From the sequence record PP738783.1: a stretch of 64,000 nt of DNA; one strand, given 5' to 3'. Shown here piece after piece: positions 17,950-18,423 of the stretch. Below the pieces are notes generated by a model, which made no database searches, was not told the DNA's origin, and saw only the letters and a list, made by a program, of their open reading frames with translations. Position 1 is the stretch's first letter. Each line of letters begins with the position of its first letter. The position numbers and the translations under genes are program-made. The stretch comes from Klebsiella phage vB_KpnM_Tauntaun_ER47.

Positions 17950-18423
17950 TTAATTCGCCTTACGAGGATCGAAATGAACGACAATGATCGGGTAATCACC
18001 AGTCACCTCATTAATAATGCGCTTAATGAGTTCCCAGTCGCCCCCAGCGAGGCCAGCACCGATTAAAGGTGTGATGATAGGCTTTCCAGTCTTAACGGCG
18101 TCAGCAAGCCCTACAGCCTGTTTAAAAGCATTGCCGATTGCGTCATAATCGACACGCGGCCCAGGTGTCCAGAAATCATATTGAGTATATGCATTGAAAA
18201 CAATGTTGCCTTTTTCGCCAATGTAAACAGAACAAGTTCCGAGCTTATCACGGGAACCTTTTAACGTATTGGCATCAACTTGAAATGCACCAGGAATACG
18301 ATCGCGGATTTCGCGAGCAATACCAGCGCCCATATTGCAATAGCAGTTGCATCCGTGGATCAAATGGCCTTCACCATTCAGATACATATTGACAGCATTA
18401 CCTTTCACTTCTTTAATGATCAT
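17950..18423 (-). CDS. macro-domain (ADP-ribose binding/processing) protein
   Basis: HGCNCYCNMGAGIAREI and PLIGAGLAGGDW resemble the two glycine-rich macro-domain motifs. The start is set at MIIKEVKG, which is ATG-overlapped with the upstream micro-ORF. Confidence 0.6.
   Translation of the reverse strand: MIIKEVKGNAVNMYLNGEGHLIHGCNCYCNMGAGIAREIRDRIPGAFQVDANTLKGSRDKLGTCSVYIGEKGNIVFNAYTQYDFWTPGPRVDYDAIGNAFKQAVGLADAVKTGKPIITPLIGAGLAGGDWELIKRIINEVTGDYPIIVVHFDPRKAN

Follow-up and report, generated by a model that had tools for sequence, protein, structure and literature searches.

The 64,000-nucleotide stretch of DNA considered here (the window), from Klebsiella phage vB_KpnM_Tauntaun_ER47 (PP738783.1), encodes a small macro domain protein at positions 17950-18423. 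On balance, and with confidence only a little better than even, this macro gene would be the phage's tk.4, an AdfM-type counter-defence enzyme whose main role is to reverse the ADP-ribosylation of thymidines in phage DNA by DarT2. The protein has the macro fold, the marks of a defined mechanistic class and conserved active-site residues, shares homology and synteny with tk.4 of phage T4, and comes from a phage type in which no T4-type ADP-ribosyltransferase (ART) was found, whether in the window or in a relative's complete genome. In the proposed mechanism, two Gly-rich loops would bind ADP-ribose (ADPR), and the substituent at C1'' of its distal ribose would be hydrolysed by way of Asn26, His23 and Gln81, a chemistry of the SCO6735 type rather than that of the DarG and TARG1 lysine. 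ADPR that DarT2 attaches to thymidines within the TNTC motifs of phage single-stranded DNA would be removed in this manner, and replication could then proceed in Klebsiella carrying DarTG2. DarTG does occur in K. pneumoniae (PMC9411070). The substrate and the role in vivo are carried over by analogy, from the genetics of T4 Tk.4 on the one hand and from the biochemistry of SCO6735, a Gln-type hydrolase of thymidine-linked ADPR, on the other.

A stand-alone macro domain

The open reading frame (ORF) runs on the minus strand from an ATG at 18423-18421 to a TAA at 17952-17950 and comprises 157 codons. A TTG-extended version of 168 residues is in the ORF list as well, and the ATG is taken as the start because homologues begin at MI[IV]K. 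The original prediction had recognised two Gly-rich signature segments of macro domains, and both are found (Table 1). The first reads H23-G-C-N26-C-Y-C-N-M-G-A-G-I-A... and the second I-T-P-L-I-G-A-G-L-A-G-G-D-W. The Pfam Macro profile (PF01661) scores 30.1 bits, above its gathering score of 22, and is covered at 117 of its 118 positions (1-117), and PHROG 335 is matched with an E-value of 7e-57. Homologues are abundant, with 3620 in the databases and 2707 phage records.

An AlphaFold2 model calculated from a 51-sequence alignment is confident (pLDDT 95.5, pTM 0.91) and has the three-layer alpha/beta/alpha architecture of the macro fold. The best solved structures retrieved by Foldseek are all macrodomains (TARG1, Poa1p, DarG, Bt_1257 and SCO6735; TM-scores 0.70-0.78); among viral structures, the tk.4 protein of Acinetobacter phage 133 fits best (TM-score 0.89). 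The product of 17950-18423 is thus confirmed as a stand-alone macro domain, as had been predicted. A weak match to ThsA_Macro was also seen (19.6 bits, cutoff 25). Since such matches fall below threshold, the idea of an anti-Thoeris function was discarded.

Homology and synteny with T4 tk.4

The macro protein and T4 Tk.4 are 32% identical over 153 of 157 residues (E 1e-27, 88 bits). In a transposon screen on DarTG2-expressing E. coli, tk.4 alone among the T4 genes proved necessary, and a clean tk.4 knockout is DarTG2-sensitive; in the HIDEN-SEQ preprint reporting this, the gene was named AdfM, for anti-DarT factor macrodomain (bioRxiv 10.1101/2025.11.20.689424). The earlier suggestion that the phage macro domain erases DarT-type ADP-ribosylation gains support by analogy from this syntenic homologue, which T4 requires against DarTG2.

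The order of genes in the window is tk, two small ORFs, the macro gene, three tiny hydrophobic ORFs, a vs-like gene, an ORF of 199 amino acids and a vs.1-like gene, and it mirrors the T4 order tk - tk.1-3 - tk.4 - vs - vs.1. Eighty IMG/VR loci carrying family members were sampled, and their flanks were scored for NAD genes, Tk and Vs.1. The tk/vs.1 synteny recurs in ten of them: in the clade of the window's own type (L011-L017), where Tk and Vs.1 are accompanied by NatV, and in L019, L020 and L029, which have Tk and Vs.1. About 60 of the sampled loci show none of the flank markers.

A second element of the T4 arsenal is also present in this phage type. The relative Snake_ER16 (PP738765.1), complete and 97% identical, carries outside the region of the window a homologue of the NADAR protein T4 30.3/AdfN with 42% identity (53470-53910; L009 3470-3907). 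AdfN is the anti-DarTG1 factor of T4 (PMC11825919), and the AdfN homologue and the macro gene would together parallel T4's pair of DarTG counter-measures.

Active site and mechanistic class

By its sequence, the macro protein belongs to the ALC1-like class and, within it, to the SCO6735/Bt_1257 type, with Gln in place of the DarG Lys. In profile and multiple alignments Gln81 stands opposite SCO6735 Gln85 and DarG Lys80. A Gln occupies this position in 73 of 74 sampled phage homologues, and the position of N26 is Asn in equally many. H23 and N26 are invariant in the close-family alignment, likewise Gly24. N26 also aligns with N23 of PhiKZ AdfM, whose mutation lowers activity (PMC13309987). The nearest solved proteins by profile are Bt_1257 (1e-18), SCO6735 (5.5e-17), DarG (7e-11), TARG1 (1.5e-10) and Poa1p (3e-9).

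The protein is not of the MacroD type, which includes MacroD1/2, YmdB and viral nsP3. Ala36 occupies the position of the MacroD-type Asp (N-x6-G-G-[VLI]-D), the loop G-A-G-I-A36 is like the G-K-G-V-A of DarG, and viral nsP3 and MacroD-like structures rank below ALC1-like ones in Foldseek. The original prediction had proposed to look for the catalytic Asn/Asp/Gly positions, whose absence would have indicated a degenerate or binding-only fold. Of these, the Asn (N26) is indeed there, as are the two Gly-rich loops, and the Asp is not; its absence is normal in the ALC1-like class, which comprises DarG, TARG1 and SCO6735 and relies instead on the position that Lys84 holds in TARG1 and the near-invariant Gln81 holds here (PMC9411070). 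A more fitting set of residues to look for should be Asn26, His23 and Gln81 together with the Gly loops, all of which the macro protein has. In SCO6735, the mutation Q85A abolishes activity, and the wild-type enzyme outpaces DarG in stripping DarT-made thymidine-linked ADPR and protects cells against DarT (PMC9411070). The best reading of these alignments is that the macro protein is a catalytically competent Gln-type hydrolase that would act at C1'' of ADPR.

Relationship to Adpp and to NAD+ genes

A second homologue has a function of a different kind. Adpp of Vibrio phage Gary has been purified and converts ADP-ribose-1''-phosphate (ADPR-1''-P), the product of the aRES RES-domain NADase, to ADPR, so that NARP1 can rebuild NAD+; Adpp counters aRES in this way, and the three-gene operon that includes it was named NARP1-AP (bioRxiv 10.64898/2026.01.28.702374). 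The Gary macro homologue lies between a Prs-like gene ('ribose-phosphate pyrophosphokinase') and a NAPRTase-family gene. It is 37% identical to the macro protein (88 bits, E 9e-28) and 35% identical to T4 Tk.4 (77 bits). Judged by such scores, the three proteins are about equidistant, and all of them have H-G/Q-C-N-C, M-G-x-G-[IV]-A, K-L-G, N-x-Y-[TG]-Q and P-x-I-G-x-G-[LI]-[AG]-x-G-[DN]-W. A role in processing ADPR derivatives from NAD+ warfare, also raised by the original prediction, is thereby backed by a homologue as well.

The window does contain an NAD+ gene. The NatV-like gene, which had been placed about 3.5 kb from the macro gene, lies 3436 bp away and matches the Nudix and NMN adenylyltransferase models, including a full-length NCBIfam match to the bifunctional NMN adenylyltransferase/Nudix family (E 1e-76). 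The relative PP738765.1 encodes a Nampt (NadV) with an NAMPT_N domain, far from the macro gene (150627-152060; L006 22627-24060), and this is the sole NAPRTase-family gene in its genome. The NatV-like gene and NadV form a NARP2-type NAD+ reconstitution pair. No homologue of Adps was found in the window or anywhere in the relative's genome, hence there is no NARP1 (Adps/Namat) pathway. That the NatV-like gene is a metabolic partner of the macro protein is possible but unproven.

Elsewhere in the family, macro genes do sit among NAD+ genes. In L046 and L049, Adps and Namat directly flank the macro gene. In two IMG/VR contigs (L083 4712-7961 and L082 3704-7460), the macro gene is contiguous with, on the same strand as and located between NatV-like NMN adenylyltransferase/Nudix and Nampt genes, an arrangement confirmed by Pfam for L083. 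The aRES/Adpp preprint covers NARP1 operons only, and the NARP2-embedded arrangement is not described there (bioRxiv 10.64898/2026.01.28.702374). In a neighbour-joining tree, the window's own clade has a bootstrap of 96%, the split between the phage proteins with SCO6735/Bt_1257 and the DarG type has 66%, and the NARP-linked copies are scattered.

The loop that follows the catalytic-position Gln (residues 82-92 of the macro protein) was compared across an alignment of 79 family members. In all ten Tk/Vs.1-syntenic copies, the window's included, it has 8-11 residues with 0-1 Lys/Arg, and in six of seven NAD-gene-adjacent copies it has 12-15 residues with 2-3 Lys/Arg, in what is a small sample with phylogeny not controlled. 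As weak evidence, the short, low-charge loop of the macro protein would be of the Tk-syntenic rather than the NARP-embedded type. A separation of AdfM from Adpp by active-site residues or charge was also tried and given up, as the motifs are all shared and the isoelectric point (pI) varies widely within each context class.

Competing functions

Several considerations weigh against a DarT2-reversing enzyme. The biochemically proven Gary Adpp is at least as similar to the macro protein as T4 Tk.4 is, and for Tk.4 the removal of ADPR from DNA is itself a conclusion that its authors drew without an assay (bioRxiv 10.1101/2025.11.20.689424). In the tree, the macro protein joins T4 Tk.4 and other Tk-syntenic copies with a bootstrap of only 4%, so that tk.4 orthology rests on synteny, not on phylogeny. 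Nor is the resemblance to SCO6735 complete: Gly24 takes the place of Val25 at a position where the subclass is defined by Val or Ile, the mobile loop has 11 residues with one Arg in place of 13-14 residues with three Lys/Arg, and the Lys89 and Lys93 of the Lys-rich, DNA-clamping loop are missing. With no such loop and a near-neutral overall pI of 7.65, against 9.7 for SCO6735, the macro protein gives no positive sign of DNA binding in its sequence. It could instead be mainly an Adpp-type phosphatase that converts ADPR-1''-P, left by the RES-domain (aRES) phosphorolysis of NAD+, to ADPR, which the Nudix half of the NatV-like protein and the phage Nampt/NMN adenylyltransferase (NARP2-type) could then recycle towards NAD+. 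Such an activity and the AdfM role are not mutually exclusive, and as the main function we consider it rather unlikely. The identity to Gary Adpp with all motifs in common, the same sequence neighbours in the Protein Data Bank (PDB), the family members inside NARP1 operons (L046, L049 and Gary) or between NatV-like and Nampt genes (L082/L083), the NatV-like gene 3.4 kb off with NadV elsewhere in the phage type, and the occurrence of aRES in K. pneumoniae all speak for it. However, without Adps there is no NARP1 pathway in this phage type that such a phosphatase could supply, NARP2 alone is reported to cancel aRES, so that a phosphatase is not required, about eight unrelated genes separate the macro and NatV-like genes, and NadV lies tens of kb away. 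Moreover, the macro gene occupies the T4 tk.4 slot, where T4 has no NARP genes, and its post-Gln loop is short with one basic residue, unlike that of six of the seven NAD-gene-adjacent copies. A second, Adpp-like activity beside DarT2 reversal is plausible because the phosphate of ADPR-1''-P is attached to the same carbon. Whether the AdfM or the Adpp activity dominates cannot be told from homology, and neither function can be assigned by sequence alone.

An alternative target would be ADP-ribosylated protein or RNA, whether modified by the host through ART defence toxins or by ARTs of the phage itself. Its appeal lies in the closest members of the class, SCO6735 and TARG1, which also hydrolyse Glu/Asp-linked ADPR on proteins (PMC9411070), and in the existence of an RNA ADP-ribosylating defence system, with the suggestion that some counter-defences may target such modifications (PMC11825919). 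Yet no family member has been tied experimentally to protein or RNA substrates, and tblastn with T4 Alt, ModA and ModB gave no match (E <= 0.1) in the window or the complete Snake_ER16 genome. Because these homologues are lacking, phage-made ADP-ribosylation is an unlikely target, and the idea of an eraser of such marks was set aside. In the slot that the ADP-ribosyltransferase gene alt has in T4, next to the baseplate genes, the window has an ORF of 738 amino acids (4865-7081, minus strand). It was considered as an Alt homologue and rejected: the protein has an N-terminal von Willebrand factor A domain and belongs to PHROG 2426, of unknown function. A protein or RNA substrate therefore seems improbable. 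Still less credible is a non-catalytic reader or sponge of ADPR, or a housekeeping O-acetyl-ADP-ribose deacetylase of the YmdB/MacroD kind, which we regard as highly improbable. In some databases homologues carry the name 'O-acetyl-ADP-ribose deacetylase (regulator of RNase III)' or that of 'ADP ribose binding protein', and the sub-threshold ThsA_Macro match points the same way. Against this, the catalytic-position Gln, the Asn and the His hardly vary within the family, phenotypes that depend on the enzyme are known for two members, and the protein, with the MacroD-type Asp absent, has ALC1-like proteins as its nearest structures.

A possible double function of the family

A broader idea accommodates both homologues. 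The Tk.4/Adpp family (PHROG 335) might be a single bifunctional eraser at C1'', which with one Gln-type site would both remove ADPR from DarT2-modified thymidines and dephosphorylate ADPR-1''-P made by aRES, and which in NatV/NadV phages would serve as an accessory to NARP2. We put this forward tentatively, as a possibility that is more doubtful than not. The contiguous NatV-like - macro - Nampt clusters of L082/L083 are a hint of such an accessory role. If the idea holds, one small gene disarms two unrelated defence systems, and in NatV/NadV phages ADPR-1''-P would be returned to the Nudix/Nampt/NMN adenylyltransferase route, which might be called 'NARP2-AP'.

Much of this was already known. 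The family annotation is long-standing (an 'A1pp phosphatase motif' in T4, 'phosphatase' for PHROG 335) and its counter-defence functions were published in 2025-26, so that the idea behind the original prediction is essentially right and no longer new. AdfM of T4 and Adpp of Gary are not connected with each other in either of the preprints that named them (bioRxiv 10.1101/2025.11.20.689424; 10.64898/2026.01.28.702374). What is added here is that the two belong to a single sequence family and share their active-site motifs, and that this family is SCO6735-like (Gln), unlike DarG and PhiKZ AdfM (Lys). It is also new that some phages place the macro gene between NatV-like and Nampt genes, and that the Klebsiella phage type combines AdfM-, AdfN- and NARP2-type genes in the absence of a T4-type ART.

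Two groups have thus given one family different functions, anti-DarTG2 and anti-aRES. If one enzyme does both, a widespread gene needs rereading, and function should not be transferred by annotation or neighbourhood alone. There is also a practical side, as Slopekvirus-type phages are candidate therapeutics against Klebsiella, and their content of AdfM-type, AdfN and NARP2-type genes helps to predict which strains armed with DarTG, aRES or NADases can be infected.

Genomic context

The window is 97% identical to the T4-like Klebsiella/Enterobacter phages KP27, Miro and phiEap-3 and to about 100 others, and its source is a Slopekvirus-type (KP27/Miro-like) Klebsiella phage, in keeping with the lytic phage that had been assumed. 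The genes around the macro gene all point leftward, with little or no space between them: the macro ORF and the tiny ORF before it share 11 nt, and the next ATG comes 2 nt after the macro ORF. This packing by itself suggests co-transcription with the neighbours. A scan for sigma-70-like promoters returned 18 sites where shuffled sequences give 14 +/- 4.3, no excess over chance. The features discussed above are collected in Table 1. A tblastn search with T4 Vs gave no direct match for the vs-like gene.

Table 1. The macro gene, its signature segments and the neighbouring genes used in the analysis (positions in the window)
Feature	Position	Strand	Basis or detail
Macro-domain gene, positional counterpart of T4 tk.4	17950..18423	minus	157 aa plus stop
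First signature segment HGCNCYCNMGAGIAREI, phosphate-binding loop (residues 23-39)	18307..18357	minus	
Second signature segment ITPLIGAGLAGGDW, second Gly-rich, diphosphate-binding loop (residues 117-130)	18034..18075	minus	
Gln81, predicted catalytic or substrate-positioning residue (codon CAA)	18181..18183	minus	Alignments
NatV-like bifunctional NMN adenylyltransferase/Nudix	13453..14514	minus	Pfam CTP_transf_like and NUDIX; NCBIfam PRK05379 models
Thymidine kinase (tk), downstream synteny anchor	16869..17477	minus	tblastn, 53% identity to T4 Tk; tk in relatives' annotation
vs-like, upstream synteny anchor	18721..19044	minus	'valyl tRNA synthetase modifier' annotation in 97%-identical relative
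vs.1-like (SLT-domain protein), synteny anchor	20261..20941	minus	34% identity to T4 Vs.1; Pfam SLT

Between the macro and vs-like genes lie three tiny overlapping ORFs of about 32-59 amino acids (18413-18721, minus strand), whose hydrophobic cores make them resemble single-pass membrane peptides; in T4, by comparison, vs comes directly next to tk.4. Just 3' of the 130-residue ORF that comes after tk, a perfect 8-bp GC-rich hairpin, AACGAGGC-N4-GCCTCGTT (16415-16434, both strands), has T-runs on either side and looks like a bidirectional terminator.

Further afield on the minus strand, 9195-10106 encodes a full-length C-5 cytosine DNA methyltransferase (Pfam, 318 bits), and the annotation of the relative's genome lists several more DNA methyltransferases. 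An RlaP-type nucleotidyltransferase of the RNA-repair pathway (Pol-beta family), the counterpart of T4 nrdC.11, is encoded at 10602-11609, and an SPFH/Band-7 protein, annotated as a lipoprotein in relatives, at 14691-15617. The 447-residue product of 21769-23112 is a fusion of a PIN domain and a PhoH-like ATPase. The 420-residue product of 27124-28386, with an SPASM iron-sulfur domain and a weak PHROG match to Fe-S oxidoreductases, is possibly a radical-SAM enzyme. Finally, between about 28-33 kb of the window and about 92-102 kb of Snake_ER16 (PP738765.1), the coordinate offset shifts by about 5.1 kb from the macro region to the dNMP kinase gene, which points to a probable indel involving a number of small early genes.

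Comparison with known systems

DarG (PDB 5M31/5M3E/5M3I) has the same fold and class as the macro protein, and the proposed job, removal of DarT2-placed ADPR from thymidines, is alike. Its NCBIfam model (NF048014) is the sole match of the macro protein in the PADLOC defence library and NCBIfam models, and at 22.8 bits, with the macro half alone aligned, it is far below the cutoff of 250. The differences are substantial. DarG Lys80, part of F-P-T-K, is replaced by Gln, the H-x-C-N motif has no counterpart in DarG, and the DarG loop G-N-G-G-L (within G-x-G-N-G-G-L) corresponds to G-L-A-G-G. DarG further has a C-terminal DarT-binding domain and DarT as a neighbour, whereas the macro protein has neither and is surrounded by small phage ORFs. 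On these grounds the macro protein is not a DarG.

A phage protein of the DarG type does exist. PhiKZ gp104, also called 'AdfM', removes DarT2-made ADPR from DNA in vitro (PMC13309987), and it carries F-P-T-K, with the catalytic Lys, and G-C-A-N-G-G-L, where the macro protein and T4 Tk.4 are of the SCO6735 type and have its H-x-C-N and G-L-A-G-G. The PhiKZ AdfM and T4 Tk.4 families align in hhalign with an E-value of 8.5e-11 and 21% identity. As Lys and Gln types, the two proteins represent different lineages within the class, and they were given one name independently.

Among cellular proteins, TARG1/OARD1 and yeast Poa1p are the top Foldseek matches (TM-scores 0.72-0.77). TARG1 works through a Lys84/Asp125 dyad (PMC9411070), which the macro protein lacks. 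Poa1p, a phosphatase of ADPR-1''-P, has in H-S-C-N-C a motif in common with the macro protein and is matched by profile at 3e-9, and only at 0.79 by Adpp. SCO6735 and Bt_1257 (PDB 5E3B, 2FG1/2AFC) share with the macro protein the catalytic-position Gln, H-x-C-N and G-L-A-G-G. Unlike it, they are bacterial housekeeping or repair proteins.

Of the phage relatives, Gary Adpp shares with the macro protein its set of sequence neighbours in the PDB (TARG1, SCO6735, Bt_1257 and DarG), with Poa1p a marginal match of Adpp. It differs in lying between Adps and Namat, the former lacking from the Klebsiella phage type, and in its post-Gln loop, which has 15 residues, His/Lys/Arg among them, where the macro protein has 11 and a single Arg. 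T4, a phage of a different genus, carries Alt, ModA and ModB and has no NARP genes around tk.4, whereas the Klebsiella phage type is without these three, carries NARP2-type genes and has the three tiny membrane-peptide ORFs inserted between the macro gene and vs. T4 Tk.4 is nevertheless likewise a stand-alone protein of about 155 residues, with H-G-C-N-C, M-G-x-G-[IV]-A, K-L-G, Y-T-Q and I-G-A-G in common with the macro protein, and its gene occupies the same slot between tk and vs.

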